Assembly (NCBI GenBank): GCA_038870635.1
Contig: JAVZJR010000006.1
Location: forward strand, 9,112-25,995
DNA length: 16,884 nt
Direction of reading: 5' to 3'
Source of the DNA: Candidatus Bilamarchaeaceae archaeon
GTDB lineage: Archaea > Micrarchaeota > Micrarchaeia > Anstonellales > Bilamarchaeaceae
Shown one piece after another: positions 3,792-16,884 of the stretch. The notes under the pieces are model-generated. The model was not told the origin of the DNA. It did no database searches and was given only the letters and a program-made list of their open reading frames with translations. Numbering within the stretch: position 1 is the stretch's first letter; each line of letters opens with the position of its first letter. The position numbers and the translations under genes were made by a program.

Positions 3792-4733
3792 ATGGTAAAA
3801 GAAATATGTATGCTTATTTTGCTTTTTGCATTTTTTGGTTGTATTACTCAAGAAAAAGTAGAGAATAATGATAGCGAGCAGTATACAATTACACATAAAG
3901 ATTGCGAGGGTTGTTATACAGAAGAAAGCAGTAAATCAATAAACACAATAATCGTAGAAGATCAAAAAGACAGTACTACTCTAAATGAAACATTGATAAA
4001 CGTAACAGATAATAAAACAGAGATTATTGAGGAAGAAGAGCCTATCAAAAACACAACTCCTGACGAAGAAGTTGCTGACGATACTACTGAGAATGACATT
4101 CAAAAGGCAAGATGTAACGGTCCTTCTAATTACAGCAACATTTATACATCAGAAAAAGTAACTTATGACTATCGAGTTTATGAAGACGTATGTGTTAGAT
4201 GGGATACTGTGAAAAAGTTTTATTGTCAAAATGATACTTTAAAAGAAGCAAACCTCAATTGTCCACCTGGTTACTGGTGCCAGTATGGGGCGTGTGTTGA
4301 GTTTAGTGGTTCATGCACAGATTCTGATGGTAACGATACTTCTAAATTTGGATATGTTGATATTGTGACCTCTCCGTTTTCATCCAGGCGAGAGAGTGAT
4401 TCGTGTGTTGATGATATGAATCTGTACGAATGGGTGTGCAAAGAAAACGAAGGGGTTCAACTTTTGCTATCCTGCAAATCAGGTTTTAAATGTGTTGACG
4501 GGCGATGCGTAAAAAGCAAGTGTAAAGAGACAGATGAAGGCTTAGATCCCTTGGTTTTTGGTTCAACTTCAAACACGATGGAAACAGAAAATGATAAATG
4601 CATAGATGACAAGACGTTACGTGAATTCTACTGTTTTGGTGATTCAATACGTTATGTGGATATATTATGTGCAGATGAATGCATAGATAGCTCTTGCAAA
4701 CCAAAAGAGGGGGGCGGGGATGTACAAGGTTAA
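3792..4733 (+). CDS. Exported Cys-rich (lipo)protein with three 6-Cys repeat modules
   Basis: N-terminal hydrophobic stretch ending LLFAFFGC (lipobox-like). Acidic Thr-rich linker with several N-x-T/S sequons. Three modules of the type C-x-DSDG...D-x-C...L-x-E-x-x-C...C...C-x-x-G-x-C. Confidence 0.8.
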   Translation: MVKEICMLILLFAFFGCITQEKVENNDSEQYTITHKDCEGCYTEESSKSINTIIVEDQKDSTTLNETLINVTDNKTEIIEEEEPIKNTTPDEEVADDTTENDIQKARCNGPSNYSNIYTSEKVTYDYRVYEDVCVRWDTVKKFYCQNDTLKEANLNCPPGYWCQYGACVEFSGSCTDSDGNDTSKFGYVDIVTSPFSSRRESDSCVDDMNLYEWVCKENEGVQLLLSCKSGFKCVDGRCVKSKCKETDEGLDPLVFGSTSNTMETENDKCIDDKTLREFYCFGDSIRYVDILCADECIDSSCKPKEGGGDVQG

Positions 4734-5664
4734 GATAATAGATGAAAAGAAAAAAAACAATTTGATGGAGAAATATTATTCTAATAAGTTGTTTGAGCAT
4801 AAGGCAAACATTCATGGGGTATGTACAAAGATCTTTACTGATAATAAACAGATAGCTGAGATGTGGAAGGAGAATTTTGAGGAAATGCCAGAGTGGGTTA
4901 GACCACATACACGTATTTTTGCCATTTCTGATGGAAAACGTCTTGAAGTTCTTTACGAGCCAAATTCAAAAACTGTTTTTATCAAGAATTGCGATTATTA
5001 TGGTTGGATAAAAAGCATTGCACTTGGACTTGTAGCAGAGTTTATGGAAGACTTTTTCTCAGAGCATAGAAGATACTCCATTCATGGTTCTTTTATCGAT
5101 CATAATGGAAAAGGAATGGCTATAATAGGTCCATCAGGTTCTGGTAAAACTACCCTCACGTATGGTATATTACTTGATAGAAGCTATAATTTTCTTACAG
5201 ATGATTGGTTTTTTGTAAGACTATTCGATGATTCTATAAAGGTTTATTCTTCAGAGAAAAATTCTTATATAAGAAATGATCTTGCAACTAACTGGCCAAA
5301 GCTAAAAAATAAACTTGTAACTTTGACATTAGATAATAAACAGAGAGCAATAATCGATGTAAAGAAATTTTTTGGTGCAAAAAGAATCGTTTACGAATCT
5401 TCCTTGTGCTTAATCATCCTTCTGATAAGGGATAAAGAAATGCCATTTTTAACAAAATTAGATAGTAAGAAAGCAATAAAATTTATGATAGACAATGATT
5501 TTTGCAATCCTCATCAATTATTACGAACAAAAAATAAGATAGCACGCAGAAAGTCGTTCTTTATGAATATTTTCAAAAGAGTGCCAGTTTACCTTCTAAA
5601 TACAATAGAATCTCCGCAACAGTCTCTTGAAAGATTGAAAAAAATTGCTCGAGACTATCTCTAA
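4720..5664 (+). CDS. HPr kinase/phosphorylase-related P-loop kinase
   Basis: IHGSFIDHNGKGMAIIGPSGSGKTT (His plus Walker A) and FLTDDW (DD motif) match the HPrK/PEPCK-type fold. Overlaps the upstream gene by 14 nt and has a G-rich RBS. Confidence 0.82.
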   Translation: MYKVKIIDEKKKNNLMEKYYSNKLFEHKANIHGVCTKIFTDNKQIAEMWKENFEEMPEWVRPHTRIFAISDGKRLEVLYEPNSKTVFIKNCDYYGWIKSIALGLVAEFMEDFFSEHRRYSIHGSFIDHNGKGMAIIGPSGSGKTTLTYGILLDRSYNFLTDDWFFVRLFDDSIKVYSSEKNSYIRNDLATNWPKLKNKLVTLTLDNKQRAIIDVKKFFGAKRIVYESSLCLIILLIRDKEMPFLTKLDSKKAIKFMIDNDFCNPHQLLRTKNKIARRKSFFMNIFKRVPVYLLNTIESPQQSLERLKKIARDYL

Positions 5665-8600
5665 TCATCTTTATCATTTTTTTTCAACACGGTTCTAGAG
5701 AATGGTTTGTTTTTGTTTTTTTGTAGCATGTAGAACGCCAACACCCCTATTAAAATCAAAGAAGCGGCCAGAATATACCACATTGTGTTTGCATTTCCTT
5801 TTGTTTTATTTATCTCATCAATTAAAATATTCGCTCCTACTATTGTTTTTATGTAATTCTTTTTATTATACATTTCTTTTAGTTCATTGAGCTTTTTTGT
5901 TAATCCATTTAGCTGCTCCACTGAAAGTTCATTCTTTTTATTTTCAATATCATTCTCTGCTTCTTTTATCTTTCTGTATGCGCTTGATGAAAGCATTTCT
6001 AAAGTAGAATTCATATCCTTAATCGCAGGGATTAGAACGTCATTTATGCTGCTGTTTGCGTTTTCAATATCGCCATTTTTTATGTACTTTTCTATAGCAG
6101 TTATTGTATTTTTTACTTTTTCTGGTTTTGTGTTGAATAATTTTTCAAGGTCAGATTTTAGAGAGTCTTTGTATTCTGTTTCATACTTTAAGAGTAGGGG
6201 CTGGGCTGCATCTTTTAATTCATTGAAATTTTTGCTTAATTCTTCTAATGTTTTTTCTTTTGCTAACTTGGAGCTAGAATGCAAATTGTCTAATTCAAGC
6301 AGGTCAATAAGCACTGCGATTCCGTCTTCTGCTTTTTGTGTGGCCAGAAGTACATTTATATCTTCCTCGGTTTTCTTTAGAAGTGTTTGTGCTTCACTTA
6401 TACCAGTCATTTCTCTTTTATAACTTTCATATTTTTTTTGAGCCTCTTTTGCGATTGAGTTTATTTCTTTACTCAGCCAATTCTCATCTATTGCTTTAAG
6501 TTTGTCTACTGCTTTTTGTATCTCTTCCAATGATGCGTTATCATCAATTGTTGTTTCATTTAAAATAGATAAAAGAAATTCTTTTCGTGTTCTAAATTTA
6601 ATCGTTTGACTGTGGTTTTCAAGATTACCTGTTTGTGCTTTTTCTAATGCTTTTTGTAAATCTTCAATCTCTCTTTTTGTTTTTCTACTAAGTTCATAAT
6701 ATTCCTTTAGTAGTTTTGCTTTATTTTTTTCTAATTCTAAATTTTTCTTTTTTATTTCCTCTACTTTAGCCAGAGCTGCGTCTTCTTTACCATTTTTGAG
6801 AAGGTTTTCTGCCTCGTTTGCCAAGTTAACTATCTCTTGTTCTTTTGAGTTTTTATATTTATAAATTTCAAAAAGAACGTATTCACTAATGTTGCTTATC
6901 GTATAAGATACTAAAATGGTTGCATCTATTCCTTTTTTGAGGTCTTGTAGAAATATTGTATAGCCATAACCATTTTGTTGTTTTACACATTTATGCACTC
7001 CGCAATTTATTGACACCGAAGAAGCTATACCGCTATCGATGTTTAGCGGTACTTCTTCTAAATCTATGAGTGGTGTTATCATTACCCTATAACTTACTGT
7101 TGCTTTGCTATCTTTTGTTGCTATCTCTGCATCTGTTCTTTCTTCTTTGTAAGCATTATTCATAATATACTCTGTTTTTATCGTGTGCACTCCACTGTTT
7201 AGTTTTCTTAATGGGTCCCCATTATCTATTGTTACTCCTTCTATTTGTGGAAGTTTTATTTGGGCATTATCTAATGATAACATTATAACTCTTGTTTCTT
7301 TTACTGCTGCTTTTTCATAACCAAGTCCTTTTGCTTTCATTTCTGTACTTTTTGTAGTTGCCAAAACAATTTTTTTCTTGAATGTGATTGTTTTTCTATC
7401 AAAAGGTTCTATTGATTTCAATATGATGTAAAGGGTTTTCCCATTTGTTTGAATGTTTAATACATCTTCGCTGCCTGAAACTATATCAGAGTAATAAAAT
7501 TTGAATTCACCTTCTAATTGAATTGATATTTTTATATTTTTTCCACCATACTTTTGCGGGTTATAGATAGAAACTGTATAAGTTATCTCCGTAGGTTCAT
7601 CTATGTTTACTGGCGGCATAATCAAAGATGGCTCGATTATGAGTTGATTTGTAATAGCAGCATTTTTCTTTTCTATGTTACTTTCTAAGTCTTCATTTAT
7701 CTCATCGTACTTTTTGTTAAGTTCATTTAGTTTTCCTACTGCAGAAAGCCAATCTATGCTACCATCTTCTTTAACTATTCCTCTTTCTGAGTTTTTCATT
7801 TCATCGAGAAGATCGCTTGCACCAGCAGCTTTTAGTTTTTCTTCTAATTCTTTTCTCTTTTTTTCTAAGTCATAAAATCTAGATTTTATTCTATTCTCCA
7901 ATTCATCTTTTATTTCCTGGAGTAATTCCATCTCATTTGCAGGTCTGTTATTTTTTATTACATCAATTTCAATTTTTAGATCATCGACATAAATGCCATC
8001 TTTTTTAGCATTTTCTATTAATTTTTCCAGCTCAGCGATTTTCTTTTTATACTCTTCATCATAATCTGCACTTTTTGTTGGTGCAGAAACAAGAGCTATT
8101 GTAATTGCCTCTACATATTTTTTGTATTTTAAGCCCAACACAGTTTCTTTATCTCCGTTTTTGAGCGCTTCGGTCGCATTACTCAGTTGTTTTTCTATTG
8201 CAGTTTCGCTGTATCCTAAGTTTTTCATCTGTGTTTTTACATTTTCTATTGTTGCCTTAGCACTAACTCTCTTTTCATCTACAATATTTTGCGCATCTTG
8301 TAGAAGAATTTCTGAATTATTATTTATTAAATGGTAGCTTTCATTAGCTTTTTTCATATCTCTTATTCCTATCAATAAATAGTCTTGTACTTTTGAGGAA
8401 TGGATTTTTTTTGCGTTCTCGTAGTAAGTATCTGCTTCTTTTTTGCTATCTGCTAAGGACTCCCACCTCTCTGAAATTTTTCCGCTTTTTATGTTGTCAA
8501 TACTTTCAAATGTTACGCTTTCAGTTATTAAATCTAATTTTTGTTTTTCTAATTTTTTGTAAGCGTTATCCACCAAAAACTTTTCTTGATTTGCATCATC

Positions 8601-9467
8601 CTCCAATTTAGCATAGTAGTCATCTGCTTTATCTTTTGCATCATTTGCTGTTTTTTTAAGTTCGTTAAATGTTGAAATTATGCCATTTTTATCCCAGATA
8701 TTTTTCATTATTTTTGGGTATGTTGTAGTACTAGCATTTTTTACAAGGTCGCTGTTTAATTTTAGAATATCCGCTTTCATTATGTTTATTTTTCCATATT
8801 GCTCTTCTTTTTGCTCATTATCTATTATCTGAAATGCATTTTCTAGTTTTTTACATTCTTGTTTGCCAGGGTAATTGTATTCTTCCCTACAAAGACCAGC
8901 AAATTTTATTATTTCGTATTGCTCGCGCGCTTTCTGCTCGCTCTTTATTACCTCTTCTTGGCTGTTTTCAAGCGCATCCATCGCTTCTTCCATTGCTTTT
9001 TTCCAATTTTTTTCTAACGAATCATAATATAAAATTGAGGTTGGACAATCTATTTCTTCAATTGTGCGGCTTAATCCTTCTTCTAGACCTTCATTTATTA
9101 ACCTTTCATATATGCATTGAGAAATGGAGATAAGTTCTCCCCTCAGAATGCAGCTTCTTTGACATCTTAAAAATTCTTGTTCTTCTCTTAGATAAATATT
9201 ACTATACTCTTTAGCGTTGTTTATTTTTAATGTTGTTTGGGAATCCATACTTAGATTTGTTATTTCGTTTAATTCAAGTTCATTAAGCGCATACCCCATA
9301 TTATAATATATTTTTATTATTAAAAGATCCAGAATGCCATCTTGATTAGTTTCCCATGCTGGTTCTTGCCAAGGTCTGCTTATCGGAATTTTTTGGGTCG
9401 TTGAATTTAAAACCGAGGAAAATGTTAGGATCACTAAAAAAACAACTATAAGTAAGTTTTTTCCCAC
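5661..9467 (-). CDS. 1268-aa membrane-anchored surface protein: signal peptide, long coiled-coil/helical regions, central beta-rich domains, C-terminal TM helix
   Basis: N-terminal MGKNLLIVVFLVILTFSSVLNS. K/E-rich heptad segments flank a beta-rich block (~6890-7640; TEITYTVSIYN...ILVSYTI). C-terminal MWYILAASLILIGVLAFYML followed by a basic tail. GTG start with ggtggg RBS. Confidence 0.8.
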   Translation of the reverse strand: MGKNLLIVVFLVILTFSSVLNSTTQKIPISRPWQEPAWETNQDGILDLLIIKIYYNMGYALNELELNEITNLSMDSQTTLKINNAKEYSNIYLREEQEFLRCQRSCILRGELISISQCIYERLINEGLEEGLSRTIEEIDCPTSILYYDSLEKNWKKAMEEAMDALENSQEEVIKSEQKAREQYEIIKFAGLCREEYNYPGKQECKKLENAFQIIDNEQKEEQYGKINIMKADILKLNSDLVKNASTTTYPKIMKNIWDKNGIISTFNELKKTANDAKDKADDYYAKLEDDANQEKFLVDNAYKKLEKQKLDLITESVTFESIDNIKSGKISERWESLADSKKEADTYYENAKKIHSSKVQDYLLIGIRDMKKANESYHLINNNSEILLQDAQNIVDEKRVSAKATIENVKTQMKNLGYSETAIEKQLSNATEALKNGDKETVLGLKYKKYVEAITIALVSAPTKSADYDEEYKKKIAELEKLIENAKKDGIYVDDLKIEIDVIKNNRPANEMELLQEIKDELENRIKSRFYDLEKKRKELEEKLKAAGASDLLDEMKNSERGIVKEDGSIDWLSAVGKLNELNKKYDEINEDLESNIEKKNAAITNQLIIEPSLIMPPVNIDEPTEITYTVSIYNPQKYGGKNIKISIQLEGEFKFYYSDIVSGSEDVLNIQTNGKTLYIILKSIEPFDRKTITFKKKIVLATTKSTEMKAKGLGYEKAAVKETRVIMLSLDNAQIKLPQIEGVTIDNGDPLRKLNSGVHTIKTEYIMNNAYKEERTDAEIATKDSKATVSYRVMITPLIDLEEVPLNIDSGIASSVSINCGVHKCVKQQNGYGYTIFLQDLKKGIDATILVSYTISNISEYVLFEIYKYKNSKEQEIVNLANEAENLLKNGKEDAALAKVEEIKKKNLELEKNKAKLLKEYYELSRKTKREIEDLQKALEKAQTGNLENHSQTIKFRTRKEFLLSILNETTIDDNASLEEIQKAVDKLKAIDENWLSKEINSIAKEAQKKYESYKREMTGISEAQTLLKKTEEDINVLLATQKAEDGIAVLIDLLELDNLHSSSKLAKEKTLEELSKNFNELKDAAQPLLLKYETEYKDSLKSDLEKLFNTKPEKVKNTITAIEKYIKNGDIENANSSINDVLIPAIKDMNSTLEMLSSSAYRKIKEAENDIENKKNELSVEQLNGLTKKLNELKEMYNKKNYIKTIVGANILIDEINKTKGNANTMWYILAASLILIGVLAFYMLQKNKNKPFSRTVLKKNDKDD

Positions 9468-9508: not shown

Positions 9509-11290
9509 TTATTTATATTTTGAAAACAATTCCGCGCTATTCACTTTTATATCTAAAGAATAGTTTGCAGTTAATGGCTTTATTAGAGTATTTAATGGTG
9601 GTACTTCCTTCCACATTTCCCCGTTTGTGGCGTGTAATTTTAGTACAACTGGATATTTTTTTCCATCAAAATATCTTATTACACATTCTTCACGTTTGAG
9701 TTTTGTTAAGATGCTTTTCTTTATTTCTTCTATCTCAGTTTGCGTTTTGTTTTTTCTAAAATAATCTTCCAACACAATATTTAGGAGTGGTGCTATCATA
9801 GCCGCGTCGTGTGAATCAACTTTAAAGCAAAAAATGTTTTTAGAGTGGGAAAGCAAAACGTCTGCAAGTTCTTTTTCTATTTGGTTTAAGTGCTGGATGG
9901 TTGAATAGACGTAAAGGTTATACTTTCTTGTTTCATCTAATACGTCTTTTATGTTTATATTGTTTATTTTGGACAAGTCATCTATTACAAGTATCAACGG
10001 CCGTTTCAACTTTTGAGAGAAAGCTAAAAATTTGAGTTGAGCTATAAAGGACGAATATATGAGTTTTATCATTTCATCTTCAAAAAAATTCTTGTCGAGA
10101 TGGACTGCTATTATTGCATTTTTCTCTAATAATTCTTCTAAACTTTCTTCTTTTTTCGCTTTTTTTTCTGTATACAAATCCCACTTACTTATGAAATTTT
10201 TTATTGGAACAATAACTTCATTGAAATTTTTTTCATATATGGCGGGGAATTCTAACCTAAAAAATTTTTTAGCCTCTTCTGCTTTGCTTTTTGATATAAA
10301 TTTCATTCTCATAGGTGGGTCAGTTATAACCTTACCAAAATTTTCCATAGTTAGGGCGTTTATAGAAGAAAGAAGGTAAACTGAATAAAATACAACACGT
10401 TCTATTTGTTTATTATCCTTATCTATTGCCGTAGTAATCATGTCTGTTATTGTTTTTATCATGCGTGGGGTATTCTCTTTACCTCCTGTGGGAATTAGTT
10501 GAAGAAAATTTTCTTTGTAATCTATTATTTTTGCTTCTCTAAGTTCTTTTACAAGATCACCGCTTGTGTCTAAAGCGATTATTCTTATCATGCCGCCATA
10601 TCTTTTTTCTAATGCGCGTATAACCATAAAGAGTGTTTTAGTTTTGCCAGTGTTTCCTTCTCCTATAAATAATGAATGTTGAAATGGGTCAAAATTATCA
10701 ATTCCAAAAGTTATATCATTATCTTCAAAGATTGGGTAATCTGATTTTATAGAGGTATTTTTTATTGTTGGTTCCAATATTTCAAAATAAATGGATGGAT
10801 GTTTATCTGAATTTATCTCAAGAAAAGCAAAAGGATTAAGTGTAATCGAATAAAATGAAAGATTTTTTCTATCAAGTCCTTTTGCATAACCAATGTATTT
10901 GCCAAAAATTTTTATTACATTAAAATTAATCTCGTTTATTCCTTCTTTAAGCATTAAGTTTATGTGGTTCTCGCTATTGAAGAAATAAATTTTAGGAATA
11001 TGCAGATTGGTTTTTTTATTAGTTTCAAAAAACGCTTCGTTTCCTACTTTGAATGGAAAAAAAAGAGGCGCCATATTCATTACTTTTTCTGTCTCTCGAG
11101 TATAATACCTGATGGTGTTGTCTGATCTTTTTATTACTAATGGAGAGGGCAGATTTGAGAGAAAATAAGAAAAGTCAAAGAGCCGCAGAGCAGGATGTCT
11201 TCTTTTTGTCAATTGGTCAAAAAATTGTTTTAATTCTTCTTTGCTTATTTTATTGCTATATAAGTAGAGTTCTCGCCACTTTTCCCCCAT
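9509..11290 (-). CDS. HerA/FtsK/VirB4-superfamily P-loop ATPase (DUF87-like)
   Basis: HSLFIGEGNTGKT (Walker A, 10640-10663), IIALDTSGD, LILVIDDL (Walker B) and ETRKYNLYVYSTIQHLNQI (Arg finger plus conserved Gln of the HerA/VirB4 family). Confidence 0.8.
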   Translation of the reverse strand: MGEKWRELYLYSNKISKEELKQFFDQLTKRRHPALRLFDFSYFLSNLPSPLVIKRSDNTIRYYTRETEKVMNMAPLFFPFKVGNEAFFETNKKTNLHIPKIYFFNSENHINLMLKEGINEINFNVIKIFGKYIGYAKGLDRKNLSFYSITLNPFAFLEINSDKHPSIYFEILEPTIKNTSIKSDYPIFEDNDITFGIDNFDPFQHSLFIGEGNTGKTKTLFMVIRALEKRYGGMIRIIALDTSGDLVKELREAKIIDYKENFLQLIPTGGKENTPRMIKTITDMITTAIDKDNKQIERVVFYSVYLLSSINALTMENFGKVITDPPMRMKFISKSKAEEAKKFFRLEFPAIYEKNFNEVIVPIKNFISKWDLYTEKKAKKEESLEELLEKNAIIAVHLDKNFFEDEMIKLIYSSFIAQLKFLAFSQKLKRPLILVIDDLSKINNINIKDVLDETRKYNLYVYSTIQHLNQIEKELADVLLSHSKNIFCFKVDSHDAAMIAPLLNIVLEDYFRKNKTQTEIEEIKKSILTKLKREECVIRYFDGKKYPVVLKLHATNGEMWKEVPPLNTLIKPLTANYSLDIKVNSAELFSKYK

Positions 11291-11391
11291 GTTTTTATTT
11301 AAACTAACAACTACTTAAAAATCTTGCGATAAGGTTTGTTAAAAAAAGAAATTATATATATTTTATCTTATATCTAATCTTGGTTTTGTTT

Positions 11392-11712
11392 ATGGGCATT
11401 GTTGATTTCATTAGCAAACTTTTTGAAAGCCCTAAAAAAAAGTATAAGTGTCCAAATTGTGGTGCAGATGTTACTCTGGATATGGAAAGATGTCAAAAAT
11501 GTGGCGTAAGGATAAAATCAATGTTTAGAAAGAAATGCCCAAAGTGCGGCACGTTAAATGAACTCGACGCAAAAAAATGTAGTAAATGCGGCTATAATTT
11601 TGAAGCTGAAGAAATACAATTGAAAAAAACCTATTATGTTTGTCCGATATGCGGTTATAAGAGTGAAACTTTTCTTCCAGAGTGTCCTGCCTGTGGCACT
11701 CGTTTTGTATGA
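11392..11712 (+). CDS. Triple zinc-ribbon (DZR-like) protein
   Basis: Six CxxC knuckles: CPNC/CQKC, CPKC/CSKC, CPIC/CPAC. ATG 11392 is preferred over TTG 11380. Confidence 0.88.
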   Translation: MGIVDFISKLFESPKKKYKCPNCGADVTLDMERCQKCGVRIKSMFRKKCPKCGTLNELDAKKCSKCGYNFEAEEIQLKKTYYVCPICGYKSETFLPECPACGTRFV

Positions 11713-11728
11713 ACATAATATGTTGTCG

Positions 11729-13990
11729 CTATTGACCAAAATTTAATGAGTATTCAAATTCACTTTTTTCTTTTCCATTTGGGTTTGGTTTGAATTTAAT
11801 TCTTTTTAGTTCATCTAATACTTTGTCTGTATGACCTGATGGAGGCGTACCATCCTCCTTTACCTTTACATCTATTACTTTTCCTTCTTTTTCATTTACT
11901 TCAAAAAGAACTACCATTTTGCCTTTTAAGTTATACCTTTCACCTAAATATTTTGTTTTATCATTTATAGCCTGGTATAAATTTTTAAGTTGTAATTGAG
12001 GTGTTTTTTTCTCTTCTTTTTCTTGTGGTGTGATTATAACTGCCATTTCTTTTCTATCTTCTTTTTTTTCTTTAATTATTGATGGTTCAGTTAAATTTAA
12101 TTCAGGGATTACCATTTCAAATTCTTTTTTACCATACTTTTTTTCTTCTTTGTTTTCTGCGCTACTCTCTTGTTCTACGCTATCCGGTTGTTTGATAAAA
12201 TCATTGGGTGTAATATCGTTTGAGTATTCTTGCGCAACAACTTCATCTTTACTTTTGATCGACCAATTTTTTAGCATATTGTTAATTAAATCCTGAGCAT
12301 CCACACCCATTGCTTTTTGGACGAGCTTTCCTTGTTGCGTTATATATGTACCGTAATATTTCCCGCCTCTACCAAAGATTTGCGTTTGCAATAGTGGAAC
12401 CCCGCTAACTTGCGAATAAATCTTCAAAGCATCATCAAGCGAACCTGATTTAGCAGTATATCTCATCCCATAATCTATTATGGATACTCTTTTGTCGCCA
12501 TTTTCTTCATAAAAAGCGAGCGCTACCACGTGCGGTGATTTTTTCGTATTAACTGTAATAGTATAAGCTTGTATGCCATTTGCTCTTAAAAATTCCGCAA
12601 TAAATTCGTGTATCCCCGCGCATATTGCAACACCATTCTTAAGTTCCTCTGGCATTCCATCGTATGTTCCGTGTTCTGCGTAATAGCGGTTATACTCTTT
12701 TATAAAGTATAATATATCGTCATAATTTTTTGACGTTAAGTTCTTTACATTTGGACTGAATATTTTGAATTCTTTCAAGTCATTATAGGCACCATAATCA
12801 TATCCCCCTCTTCCAAGCATGCTTGCAAGATAATTAGCAACAGTGAGCAATTCTTCTGTACTTTTTCCATTATATGCAAGTATAAGATCGCCAAAGTAAT
12901 TACTATTCTCTATATTGGTTTTTGCATTGTTTATCCATTGCTCCTCTTGTGGTGTGATTTGGCCATTTTCTGCGATAAATCTTTTTTCATAATTGGGATT
13001 CGTAAGCATATTTTTGTTTTCAAATTCCATGGTGTAATAATTGTCCGGTCTTTCCTTTTTTGAATTGCCAAAATTAACTGTAACTATACCACCTACGTAG
13101 AAAGTATGCGGAAAAAATTCCTTATCATAAATTGGGTTATAACCCCTTACGCCTCCTCCTAAAGAAACTAGTACAGACACGCCACCTTCGTTATATACTT
13201 CTCTTCCATATGCTATTCCAATGTCTGGGTCTATTTTATCTGTATTTACTCTCAAACCAAATATTCCTAAATTTTCATTTTTATAATTTATTTCGAAAAT
13301 ATTTCCTTGATAGCGTGGTCGATAATCAACCACAAGCGCAGTATTAGGTGTTTTTGAAGCTGCAAAATAATTAGTATTTATTATTTTTAATTCAAGTTTG
13401 TTATTATAATCTACTAAGAATCCATTTACCCATCTTGCGAAAAGCATATCGTAGGTCGGGTAAGATATCGCTCCTTGGCCAAGTGTTGCTAAGTTAAAAG
13501 ATACTTTTCCTATAGAAAAGTGCGTGGATGCGCCTGCTCCTTGGACAGTATAAAACCACGACGCCATGTGGGTAAATGTTATGTTTCCATTATAATATAA
13601 ATTTAAATGACCATCGATAAGCCTCAATGATGGTGTTACATTTATGCTTCCAATACCATATGGAATGTTGTTAAGCCATATTCCGCCGCCCCTCACGCTT
13701 AGCCAATCATAAAAACTTAATTCACCTGATAATGAAGAACCTGCATCATTGTTATAGTAATTTACTCCATAAGACAATTTATTATCCGCTATAATAGGCG
13801 GCGCAGCTCGTAGGGCAGTTTCTTCATTTGCTTTTAGTGTTGCAGGTAAGAGTATACCTAATATAAGAACACCGGCAGTTATTTTCTTTGTTTTTTGTAT
13901 TAATTTATTTGATATGTTTTTTAGTGCATCTTTGAATTTTTGAAATTTTCTTTGTTTTATTTCTTTTTTTTCACTAACCTTGTCGTCCAT
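11729..13990 (-). CDS. ~753-aa multidomain exported protein: basic leader + signal peptide, beta-barrel-like region, transglutaminase-like domain, charged linker, TonB C-terminal-like domain
   Basis: Start moved to ATG 13990 (MDDKVSEKK) to avoid head-to-head overlap with the dph2 promoter region. KKITAGVLILGILLPATLKA is signal-like. Gly/aromatic amphipathic strands end in FYVGGIVTVNF. GVAICAGIH...GI...SPHVV...IIDYG gives the triad. C-terminus is KGKMVVLFEVNEKEGKVIDVKV...DKVLDELKRIKFKP...YSLNF. Confidence 0.8.
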   Translation of the reverse strand: MDDKVSEKKEIKQRKFQKFKDALKNISNKLIQKTKKITAGVLILGILLPATLKANEETALRAAPPIIADNKLSYGVNYYNNDAGSSLSGELSFYDWLSVRGGGIWLNNIPYGIGSINVTPSLRLIDGHLNLYYNGNITFTHMASWFYTVQGAGASTHFSIGKVSFNLATLGQGAISYPTYDMLFARWVNGFLVDYNNKLELKIINTNYFAASKTPNTALVVDYRPRYQGNIFEINYKNENLGIFGLRVNTDKIDPDIGIAYGREVYNEGGVSVLVSLGGGVRGYNPIYDKEFFPHTFYVGGIVTVNFGNSKKERPDNYYTMEFENKNMLTNPNYEKRFIAENGQITPQEEQWINNAKTNIENSNYFGDLILAYNGKSTEELLTVANYLASMLGRGGYDYGAYNDLKEFKIFSPNVKNLTSKNYDDILYFIKEYNRYYAEHGTYDGMPEELKNGVAICAGIHEFIAEFLRANGIQAYTITVNTKKSPHVVALAFYEENGDKRVSIIDYGMRYTAKSGSLDDALKIYSQVSGVPLLQTQIFGRGGKYYGTYITQQGKLVQKAMGVDAQDLINNMLKNWSIKSKDEVVAQEYSNDITPNDFIKQPDSVEQESSAENKEEKKYGKKEFEMVIPELNLTEPSIIKEKKEDRKEMAVIITPQEKEEKKTPQLQLKNLYQAINDKTKYLGERYNLKGKMVVLFEVNEKEGKVIDVKVKEDGTPPSGHTDKVLDELKRIKFKPNPNGKEKSEFEYSLNFGQ

Positions 13991-14084
13991 ATTTTTAAAA
14001 AACAGCCCTCTCATAGATTTTATTTTTAGGAAAGAAGAATTTAAAACACTTTGTTTCTTTAAAAAACACAAAAAGGTGTTTCTT

Positions 14085-14981
14085 TTGAGAATACTCCTTC
14101 AGTTTCCAGATGGATTGAAAAAAGAGGCTTTAAAGTATGCAGAAAAATTTAGAAAAGAAGGTCACGAGGTAGTTCTTTCTGGTTCTCCTTGTTATGGTGC
14201 TTGCGACCTTGCTTTAAAAGAAGCAGAAATAATAAAAGCAGATAAAATAATTCATTTCGGTCATGCTCCTTTTTTGAAAAATTCTGTCGTCCCTGTTGAA
14301 TATATAGAATGGCCTGAGGATGTAAATATTGAAAAAATAAAAGAAAGTGCTAAAAAAATAAAAGAGAAAAAAATAGCCCTTGCGACAACCGTTCAGCATA
14401 TTAATAGGATAAAAGAAATAAAAACCGCGTTCGAAGAGATAGGGAAGGAAATTTTTTTGTCAAAAGGCAATTACGCTTTTTACGAGGGGCAGGTTCTTGG
14501 GTGTGATTTTGGCGCAGTTAAACACCCTTTCGCTCAAGCGGCGGTAATTATTGCAGACGGTAAATTTCATGCATTAGGTGTTTTTGTTGATTATCCAGTT
14601 TACTCCATTCATCCAAGAACTGGTGAACTAAAAAACCTAAGCGAGGCCATAGAAAAAGCAAGAAAAATCAGAAAGGGCGCTATTTTGCGTGCTGTTAATG
14701 CAAGCAGTTTTGGCGTTTTAGTAAGTACGAAACCTGGCCAATTCCGATTAAAAATTGCAGAAGATATTGCGGCGAGGATTCGCTCTTATGGAAAAAAGGC
14801 AGAAGTTGTAGTTTGTGATGATTTAAATCCATCAACTCTATCTAATTTCTTTTTTGATGCATTCATAAATACTGCTTGCCCTCGAATCGCTGATGACACT
14901 GAAATTTTCGATAAACCAGTAATAAATTTTGACAGCGTTATTGAACTTTTTAAACTTTGGGACGACTTAGGATCTCGCTGA
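14085..14981 (+). CDS. dph2: Diphthamide biosynthesis enzyme Dph2 (2-(3-amino-3-carboxypropyl)histidine synthase)
   Basis: (M)RILLQFPDGLK, PCYGACD, IHFGH, TTVQH, GQVLGC, STKPGQ and INTACPRI supply the three dispersed Fe-S cysteines. Likely start is TTG 14085 with aggtg RBS at 14074-14078. Confidence 0.95.
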   Translation: MRILLQFPDGLKKEALKYAEKFRKEGHEVVLSGSPCYGACDLALKEAEIIKADKIIHFGHAPFLKNSVVPVEYIEWPEDVNIEKIKESAKKIKEKKIALATTVQHINRIKEIKTAFEEIGKEIFLSKGNYAFYEGQVLGCDFGAVKHPFAQAAVIIADGKFHALGVFVDYPVYSIHPRTGELKNLSEAIEKARKIRKGAILRAVNASSFGVLVSTKPGQFRLKIAEDIAARIRSYGKKAEVVVCDDLNPSTLSNFFFDAFINTACPRIADDTEIFDKPVINFDSVIELFKLWDDLGSR

Positions 14982-15396
14982 GTCTTTTTTTAGCAATTTC
15001 GCGCGTATCTTCATAAGGACAGTTTCGTATTACCCATTCTAAAAAAATTGGTTTGTTTATATTCTTAATGAGATTTTCTCTTGCAGTTTTATTATCTGAA
15101 TACTTTAATATTATTATATAACTGTCAAAAAGTTCAATTGAGCTTGGTCTTTCAGCTGCTCTATTAGCGATTTCCTTTATTGCCTCTCTTTGTAATGCTC
15201 CTACATTACTCTCTTTTATTATTCTTATTAATTCTTCTTCTGTTTTTTCCTTAAGAAATTGAAATTTTTTATATTTATTCCAATTGTATATTCTTATCTG
15301 TACTTCTGGGCCTGGTTTATATTTTTTTAATTTATTTTTTGTTTTTTTATTTTCTCTTGCGCCCTCTTTTTTTTTCTTTTGAATTTCTTTTTTCAT
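14950..15396 (-). CDS. Hypothetical protein with Lys-rich N-terminus and short alpha-helical (HEAT-like) repeats
   Basis: 148-aa ORF with ATG start and helical units (LQREAIKEI, TARENLIKNI, TREIAKKRL). Its 3' end overlaps dph2 convergently by 32 nt. Confidence 0.65.
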   Translation of the reverse strand: MKKEIQKKKKEGARENKKTKNKLKKYKPGPEVQIRIYNWNKYKKFQFLKEKTEEELIRIIKESNVGALQREAIKEIANRAAERPSSIELFDSYIIILKYSDNKTARENLIKNINKPIFLEWVIRNCPYEDTREIAKKRLSEILSRPKV

Positions 15397-16282: not shown

Positions 16283-16435
16283 ATGGGAAAATTTCCAGAA
16301 GGAGACGCTGAGTTATCGAAGATTGTTATATGCAGACGATGCAAAACAAGGAACAAAGTAGGTGTAGAAAAATGCAGGAAATGTGGCTCTACTTATTTAA
16401 GACCTAAAAGGAGAGAGATAAGAGCGAAGAAATAA
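16283..16435 (+). CDS. rpl40e: 50S ribosomal protein L40e (absent from the ORF track)
   Basis: Hand translation: MGKFPEGDAELSKIVICRRCKTRNKVGVEKCRKCGSTYLRPKRREIRAKK*. Shows the ICRRC...N...CRKCG...LRPK signature, with an aggtgg RBS upstream. Confidence 0.95.
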   Translation: MGKFPEGDAELSKIVICRRCKTRNKVGVEKCRKCGSTYLRPKRREIRAKK

Positions 16436-16518: not shown

Positions 16519-16884
16519 ATGGATGACCACAATCAAAATCTAAATAATCTAAAGAAAGAAGTTATACTTAGCTATATAAAAGAACATTATAGCAATTTGA
16601 GTTTTACCAATGAAGATGAAGCATTTGAATGGATAAAGAATAACAGAGAGAAGATAAAATCTAAGGATAAAGGAGAAGAGTTATCATTAAGCTATATTGC
16701 ACTTATTTTAGAAGTTGCAGAAAAGTTAGAGAAAATTAATGCACACGGATTACAGATAAAATGTGCAGCATATGATAATTATCTCTTCAATAAGGAAACT
16801 ATTGATAAGTTAGATTTTAGTAATGAAGATGAAGCATTTGAATGGATAAAGAATAACAGAGAGAAGATAAAATCTAAGGATAAA
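16519..16884 (+). CDS. 5' part of a repeat protein with 71-aa period, running off the window end
   Basis: Open from ATG 16519 to the end: MDDHNQNLNNLKKEVILSYIKEHYSNLSFTNEDEAFEWIKNNREKIKSKDKGEELSLSYIALILEVAEKLEKINAHGLQIKCAAYDNYLFNKETIDKLDFSNEDEAFEWIKNNREKIKSKDK... Confidence 0.8.
   Translation, partial: MDDHNQNLNNLKKEVILSYIKEHYSNLSFTNEDEAFEWIKNNREKIKSKDKGEELSLSYIALILEVAEKLEKINAHGLQIKCAAYDNYLFNKETIDKLDFSNEDEAFEWIKNNREKIKSKDK
16609..16884 (+). repeat. Exact direct repeat of at least 63 bp, 213-bp period (16609-16671 and 16822-16884)
   Basis: aatgaagatgaagcatttgaatggataaagaataacagagagaagataaaatctaaggataaa occurs twice, identical up to the last base of the window. Confidence 0.95.

Follow-up and report, generated by a model that had tools for sequence, protein, structure and literature searches.

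The stretch of DNA analysed here, 16,884 nucleotides long and called the window at that full length, belongs to a genome of the Bilamarchaeaceae, which PMC8561730 lists as a family in the Micrarchaeota order Anstonellales. Its minus strand carries a native gene whose product is predicted to join a 15-stranded transmembrane beta-barrel, a Cys-His-Asp enzyme domain and a TonB_C-like tail. We propose that this focal protein is an effector put by the archaeon into the outer membrane of a Gram-negative (diderm) bacterial host, a reading to which we assign a probability of roughly 40%. Judged from the models, it may act as a surface thiol enzyme that is anchored by a barrel and tethered on the periplasmic side.

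The open reading frame (ORF) at 13990..11729 on the minus strand is stop-free over 753 codons. A sequence-only reading of the window had started the gene at 13990; the frame holds, but the start is probably the ATG at 14014, eight codons upstream, since relatives P0003-P0006 open with MRGILY and the window has MRGLFF there. Residues are numbered from the earlier-noted ATG at 13990 (753 amino acids). The gene is composed as follows.

11729..14014, minus strand: whole gene, 761 amino acids from the likelier ATG at 14014, 753 from the ATG at 13990
13829..14014, minus strand: long charged leader and signal-peptide-like segment, predicted cleavage after LKA at residue 54
13016..13774, minus strand: predicted transmembrane beta-barrel of 15 strands, residues 73-325, closed in the models by parallel pairing of beta1 and beta15
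12338..12952, minus strand: transglutaminase-like (papain-like) domain, residues 347-551, modelled as a cap over the barrel's long-loop face
12620-12622, 12530-12532 and 12473-12475, minus strand: catalytic-type residues Cys457, His487 and Asp506, from sequence
12266..12337, minus strand: plug helices, residues 552-575, through the lumen from the long-loop to the short-turn side by modelled contacts
11999..12262, minus strand: disordered E/K-rich linker, residues 577-664, strain-variable, predicted local distance difference test (pLDDT) below 50
11732..11989, minus strand: TonB_C / AgmX-PglI-like C-terminal domain, residues 668-753, by profiles and model

The whole-protein AlphaFold2 model was computed from a 40-sequence alignment, with a pLDDT of 81.7 and a predicted TM-score of 0.70. 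It contains 15 long strands between residues 73 and 325 (pLDDT about 90), a helical and beta domain at 347-574, disorder at 577-664 and a compact tail at 668-751. The barrel folded alone without an alignment gave a pLDDT of 29. Structural comparison of the barrel yields PelB (9h80) at Z 15.0 with a root-mean-square deviation (RMSD) of 3.6 Å over 226 aligned residues, and CymA at Z 14.4 with 4.1 Å over 232 residues. Matches at Z 13-15 comprise PelB, PgaA, BcsC, CymA and OmpG, with identities of 6-10%, and all 50 structural matches listed are membrane barrels or complexes containing them. The RMSD is about 4 Å to 14- and 16-stranded barrels alike, so a size in between fits. When the faces of strands 2-10 were assigned by plug contacts, the outer face was 69% hydrophobic and 2% charged (46 positions) and the lumen face 35% hydrophobic and 21% charged (35 positions). 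In the models the amphipathic strands form a closed barrel, as in outer-membrane-type proteins. The sequence-only reading had placed a barrel-like beta region at 13067-13783, which holds 14 of the strands (73-307) and leaves out the fifteenth (317-325); the outer-membrane-type fold is indeed predicted, but with 15 strands and a helix plug that follows the enzyme domain.

The topology was modelled by folding residues 62-312 and 313-578 as two separate chains and reading off their contacts. The model scored 0.91 and the best of three controls 0.00; 116 of 157 solved complexes attain the mark for this score, as do 2 of 215 mismatched pairs. Runs share at least 87% of contacts, with a partner pLDDT of at least 84. 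Since two halves of a single protein should pass such a test anyway, its worth lies in the contact list. The 14-strand half (62-312) is left unclosed on itself, and strand 15 inserts between strands 14 and 1, antiparallel on one side (303-321) and parallel on the other (78-321 and 79-322, offset 243). Helix 561-573 fills the lumen lengthwise, from the long loops to the short turns, with contacts of 561-563 to 136/138/149 and of 569-573 to 166/168/188-192. Coevolution analysis of 112 sequences, done before the two-chain model, recovered the adjacent antiparallel ladders and placed offset 243 first for strand 15. The 25 model contacts listed have a mean coevolution Z of 0.31, against -0.30 ± 0.18 for random pairs (p = 0.0014). 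The barrel is therefore predicted to have 15 strands with a parallel beta1-beta15 closure, and coevolution leans the same way. An initial reading as 14 strands plus a linker, in the manner of an inverse autotransporter, was dropped after the structural matches and the two-chain model. By bacterial convention, the short-turn side and the N-terminus would be periplasmic. Since the helix returns the chain through the pore, the linker and tail would exit on the side of the N-terminus, leaving the enzyme outside and the tail inside.

The enzyme domain carries a conserved Cys-His-Asp triad in the order expected of Transglut_core (PF01841), which it matches with an E value of 0.0099 and 16.6 bits, under the cut-off of 23. 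In the 112-row family alignment, which leaves out six enzyme-first or fragmentary sequences, Cys457 and His487 are each present in 107 of 107 non-gap rows. At position 506, 93 of the 107 rows have D and 9 have N, making 102 with either residue. Foldseek with the whole model gave weak rows for a transglutaminase (4xz7, E 0.011) and a cysteine protease (3isr, E 0.015). As in these papain-like enzymes, the Cys stands at a helix start and the His and Asp on the following strands. Unlike PF01841 members, the domain scores below the Pfam cut-off and is fused to a barrel, whose loops 179-184 and 210-220 are predicted to touch the active-site helix. The domain is likely a cysteine peptidase.

The linker (577-664) contains 17 E, 15 K and 6 P among its 88 residues. 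The tail is modelled at 668-751 as helix-strand-strand-helix-strand, with pLDDT mostly above 90. It matches the AgmX/PglI C-terminal family of NCBIfam (NF033768; E 2.5e-6, 27.5 bits, cut-off 40) and Pfam TonB_C (PF03544; E 0.0048, with 3 of 6 tails matching), and the top ESM Atlas matches of the tail are TonB_C clusters at 0.94. TonB_C domains act in the periplasm. The tail shares with TonB_C and AgmX/PglI/GltG C-terminal domains the order of secondary structures and a long flexible linker before it. Whereas TonB_C proteins are tethered to an inner-membrane helix, the focal tail is tethered to the barrel, and no ExbB/TolQ/MotA motor was found in the genome or family. We regard the tail as probably TonB_C-like in fold and as distinct from a TonB. 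Against three single proteins the tail profile gave no significant HHalign match, so we claim no further TonB-like domains in the focal genome; among 14 shorter candidate relatives of the tail, none scored. Two stand-alone Micrarchaeota genes, L063:35-1153 (G162) and L064:403-1683 (G214), encode an AgmX/TonB_C-like end that a linker joins to a signal; a second, adjacent gene in G162 looks alike by eye and matches no family.

The Cys-His-Asp region, the E/K/P-rich linker and the TonB_C-like domain described by the sequence-only reading were thus borne out by the conserved residues, by the low pLDDT and composition, and by the secondary structure and sub-threshold matches from three libraries, respectively. 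Its suggested profiles, TonB_C and Transglut_core, both match, but with all scores under the curated cut-offs. Its signal-like segment was recovered as well: by sequence and a hydropathy rule, the leader is charged, turns hydrophobic from about residue 36 and ends in LKA at 54.

The focal protein is not an autotransporter, a VDAC or a TonB by the features tested. It resembles bacterial 14- and 16-stranded barrels (CymA 4d5b, OmpG 2f1c/4ctd, PelB 9h80, PgaA 4y25, BcsC 9b8h) in its antiparallel meander, in having its short turns and its long loops on opposite sides, and in its hydrophobic outside. Bacterial outer-membrane barrels have an even number of strands, all antiparallel. In contrast, the focal barrel, encoded by an archaeal gene, is predicted to have 15 strands closed in parallel, to be capped by an enzyme domain and to have a plug helix threaded through it. 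In VDAC, Tom40 and Mdm10 the first and last strands are parallel. A helix lies in their lumen, as in the focal model, where it is C-terminal, and they have 19 strands against the 15 predicted here. The odd number itself is shared, and PMC7586230 describes odd-stranded barrels as exclusive to mitochondrial outer membranes. Mitochondrial matches are weak (VDAC1, Foldseek E 0.028; TOM core complex, Z 9.2), and there is no sign of homology to VDAC/Tom40, neither subfamily profile having a significant PDB sequence match. Inverse autotransporters (type Ve, such as intimin and invasin) have a signal peptide, an N-terminal barrel and a C-terminal domain on the outer face, an arrangement in which the focal protein is alike; the intimin barrel 4e1s is a weak Foldseek match (E 0.032). 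Their barrels have 12 strands, a linker that leaves through the pore and an Ig-like passenger. The focal protein is without such a passenger, and in its 15-stranded model the odd strand carries the chain out and the helix brings it back.

Profile A1, searched against 401 Micrarchaeota genomes, matched 40, with 38 of the 75 Bilamarchaeaceae genomes besides the focal one; a match in G012 is restricted to the leader and was left out of the family. A second profile matched 39 of the 75 and 3 of 30 genomes in the sister family, and a repeated word-index search with profile A2 yielded the same 6 proteins again. A remote relative on a 4.8-kb contig bears the label Omnitrophota; most relatives carry no label. 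The three-module architecture described earlier is real, but only the barrel and enzyme core is family-wide, and the TonB-like tail is a rare addition. Profile A1 covers the tail in only two of the 40 carriers (G000, the focal genome, and G064), and 84 of the 112 alignment rows stop no more than 4 residues from column 576, at the plug. The tail occurs in 5 of 118 non-redundant sequences, which in a midpoint-rooted FastTree tree of 97 rows (15 short rows left out) form one clade (support 0.997) with the tail-less P0007, from a 2.1-kb contig. The tail was likely gained by late fusion.

Three layouts are present: leader-signal-barrel-enzyme with or without the tail, signal-less barrel-enzyme, and enzyme-first with a C-terminal beta-rich region. 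The second subfamily shares this barrel and this enzyme (HHalign probability 100). In the enzyme-first layout (L096:1135-4272 in G119, L097:1045-2754 in G182, P0068, P0076 and P0083) the Cys-His-Asp domain precedes the beta-rich region, and G119 has two adjacent copies without a clear signal. G070 encodes three signal-less barrel-enzyme paralogues within 12 kb (L098:848-11507). Comparison with a 97%-identical relative revealed differences at 3 of 505 positions in the barrel and enzyme and at 18 of 178 in the linker and tail, the latter holding 18 of the 23 differences. Among linker and tail codons with listed strain differences, 13 of 16 change the residue; 35 differences lie outside that listing. 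No conserved operon partner of the family was found. The patchy range (38/75), the triple copies in G070, the lack of such a partner and the variable tail and linker are effector-like traits.

PDB sequence searches with profiles A4, A2 and A3 gave nothing significant, the ESM Atlas no usable match for the whole protein and PHROGs no match; 37 pattern matches on viral contigs contained no relatives, and viral folds gave no match at E <= 0.001. Consistent with the earlier statement that no family of this architecture is described, none was found in those PDB searches or in open-access full text, although supplementary tables may list it. An archaeal barrel is mentioned in PMC12228718, as a possible PopA relative in Altiarchaeales; PMC7613921 contributed nothing further about barrels.

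A hydrophobic stretch follows the leader in 33 of the 36 scored subfamily-1 members, with a median start at residue 34. A hidden Markov model of the leader, trained without P0001 and P0002, ranked other long-leader proteins of the same genome at the top. Eleven proteins, chosen by hand and including the focal one, make up the long-leader set; by eye, a lipobox-like Cys closes the signal in 7 of them. Their N-x-S/T sites number 30 against 39.9 expected. The 58 short-signal proteins have 624 against 361, or 252 against 154 once the four largest are removed, and a per-protein comparison of 47 short-signal with the 11 long-leader proteins gave p = 0.001. The family enzyme domain has 108 sites against 137 expected over 102 rows. 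The missing enrichment in the long-leader class suggests a separate route that bypasses the archaeon's own glycosylation.

The long-leader orphan proteins of the focal genome, a candidate effector set, carry 20-50 charged residues before a bacterial-type signal (loci L099-L106 and L108). They lie at C1:44502-45308, C1:153405-154133, C1:163029-164798, C1:219221-220285, C2:96013-96573, C2:135142-136476, C3:20695-24156, C3:67471-68295, C4:41341-42075 and C5:25093-26682. Nine were scanned and had no significant Pfam match. The protein at C1:219221 and the focal leader have KKITAGVL in common.

The sequence-only reading had suggested an effector that engages bacterial envelope machinery. This fits the indirect evidence, namely the N-x-S/T pattern and the machinery not found, but stays a matter of inference. 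The Omp85/BamA machine that accompanies bacterial outer-membrane proteins in the organism encoding them was found in none of 301 Micrarchaeota genomes by a profile search whose controls matched. MotA/ExbB gave no match over the cut-off and one weak match in 99 family genomes (ExbD was not searched), and the focal genome, 89.6% complete, yielded no Omp85, ExbB or Lgt. It encodes an S-layer protein and AglB. SLT lytic-transglycosylase matches occur in 19 of the 99 family genomes, and bacterial hosts have been proposed for some DPANN archaea (PMC8204110).

We propose the following course for the effector. The leader would route the protein into the host, whose export and barrel-assembly systems would insert the barrel. 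The enzyme is predicted by the models to cap the long-loop outer face with its active-site helix against the barrel loops, and might cut or de-acylate surface proteins at the contact site. The following helix is predicted to run back through the pore, so that the linker and tail leave on the N-terminal side. The tail, on its 88-residue tether, may bind TonB-box-like strands or the host cell wall and, once bound, may anchor the barrel or tug its plug. A fuller version, in which the Bilamarchaeaceae parasitise Gram-negatives and hand over long-leader proteins matured by host export, lipidation and barrel assembly, the focal one being a 15-stranded barrel with a protease outside and a TonB-like periplasmic handle wired to the plug, seems doubtful to us as a whole.

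Several points weigh against the effector reading. Cultured Micrarchaeota have archaeal hosts, and odd-stranded barrels are not established as bacterial substrates. A divergent archaeal insertase would evade the Omp85 profile, and the focal genome is without an SLT match. A signal peptide was found in only 2 of 17 scored members of the second subfamily, whose frames open at the domain start; this mostly signal-less group could not use the host Sec pathway. Family scores of the enzyme and tail are all below curated cut-offs. The whole-protein and two-chain models were built on one shared 40-row alignment, and the beta1-beta15 coevolution score of 4.1 is within noise, a false pair having reached 6.0. 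According to a 2026 survey of predicted bacterial barrels (bioRxiv 10.64898/2026.03.07.710327), at least 80% of automated odd strand counts in AlphaFold models are miscounts or misfolds for every count except 11, a putative fold; the count of 15 therefore remains a prediction. The N-x-S/T test, on a hand-picked long-leader set, is not decisive: the S-layer protein itself is not enriched (5 sites against 7.7 expected), and neither are 12 of the 47 short-signal proteins.

The same fold and topology evidence would apply if the barrel were held by the archaeon's own outer membrane, with the enzyme trimming surface proteins, the tail binding a periplasmic partner of its own and an unrecognised archaeal machine inserting the barrel. 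We keep this alternative alive because double membranes are reported for ARMAN cells (PMC6098224). In addition, a 1154-residue protein of the focal genome ranks 7th of 813 in a crude barrel score. However, the S-layer gene, the Omp85 and ExbB results, the lack of glycosylation-site enrichment and the absence of the family from 37 of the 75 family genomes searched (some incomplete) and from nearly all other families speak against it, and we consider it unlikely.

Alternatively, the plugged barrel might enter a single membrane without beta-barrel assembly machinery (BAM), be it the archaeon's own, that of vesicles or that of an archaeal host, and serve as a sealed anchor for the thiol enzyme, the tail being a generic binding module gained by one subclade. 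The signal-less subfamily retains the whole barrel, so insertion may need neither Sec nor BAM. Most members stop at the plug, the tail is rare and the enzyme-first order exists as well, which all agree with such an anchor. Nevertheless, no barrel of this kind is known in an energised single membrane, and both the TonB_C-like domains and the lipobox-like signals are indicative of diderm bacterial envelopes; we regard this explanation as improbable.

A soluble or lipid-carrying beta-barrel with no membrane pore would agree with a whole-model Foldseek search that returned nothing from the PDB at E <= 0.001 and with an RMSD of at least 3.6 Å to every barrel, but is made very unlikely by the hydrophobic, almost charge-free outward face and by structural matches that are membrane barrels throughout.

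The focal gene is native to the Bilamarchaeaceae genome. This genome has 859 kb, is 89.6% complete with 0% contamination and carries the window on contig C6; the sequencing runs that contain the focal DNA are hot-spring metagenomes. In a second study, the region is covered by one contig over 10872-13884 and by another over 12024-15319, the latter reaching dph2, and together they link tail, enzyme, barrel and dph2. The integrity of the contig, raised as a check by the sequence-only reading, is thereby confirmed. The 97%-identical relative bears the label Ca. Bilamarchaeaceae archaeon, and at locus L001 (labelled Micrarchaeota) the orthologue is likewise flanked by dph2, a zinc-ribbon gene and a 1270-residue gene. 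The archaeal surroundings noted before were also found, dph2 matching Pfam at E 1.7e-69 and a 50-residue ORF at 16283-16435 being taken as rpl40e by eye. The modules of bacterial type might suggest an assembly chimera or bacterial contamination, a notion that the spanning contigs, the like neighbours in L001, a guanine-cytosine content matching that of the flanks and the relatives found in 38 of the 75 family genomes refute to the point of a negligible chance. A promoter scan gave a result at chance level. The adjacent genes are as follows.

14076..14981, plus strand: dph2, divergent, likely GTG start at 14076 (the program-made ORF starts at 13980)
11380..11712, plus strand: zinc-ribbon gene, convergent, near the focal gene in L001, L004 and L068 too

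Further genes of the window deserve mention. A 593-residue HerA/VirB4-like ATPase lies at 9509-11290 (minus strand), with a weak TrwB match (E 0.0011). Its slot holds a 916-residue lipoprotein in L001 (L001:10708-13458) and looks exchangeable; an SLT-like motif was seen by eye in the latter gene, which has no Pfam match. A 1268-residue coiled-coil protein with a signal and a C-terminal anchor (5661-9467, minus strand) is kept in L001 and belongs to no family. At 3792-4733 (plus strand) lies a Cys-rich repeat lipoprotein with enriched glycosylation sites (8 against 3.2). Positions 1-197 form a perfect 69-bp tandem repeat of 2.9 copies, in frame, with a 23-residue unit; the contig carries 98 N, so a scaffold gap may be near this repeat. 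At 16519-16884 (plus strand) an ORF truncated by the contig end contains a repeated unit of about 22 residues (NEDEAFEWIKNNREKIKSKDK).

Archaea have no established transmembrane beta-barrels, least of all odd-stranded ones. Residence of the barrel in the archaeon would imply that one lineage of Micrarchaeota has an outer membrane together with a means of assembling it that does not depend on BAM. Residence in a host would imply that diderm bacteria are parasitised by DPANN archaea, which pass envelope proteins from one domain of life to another, a question that PMC8204110 leaves open. In addition, the predicted topology, with 15 strands, the enzyme outside and the tail inside, bears on the origin and folding of parallel-closed barrels such as VDAC.

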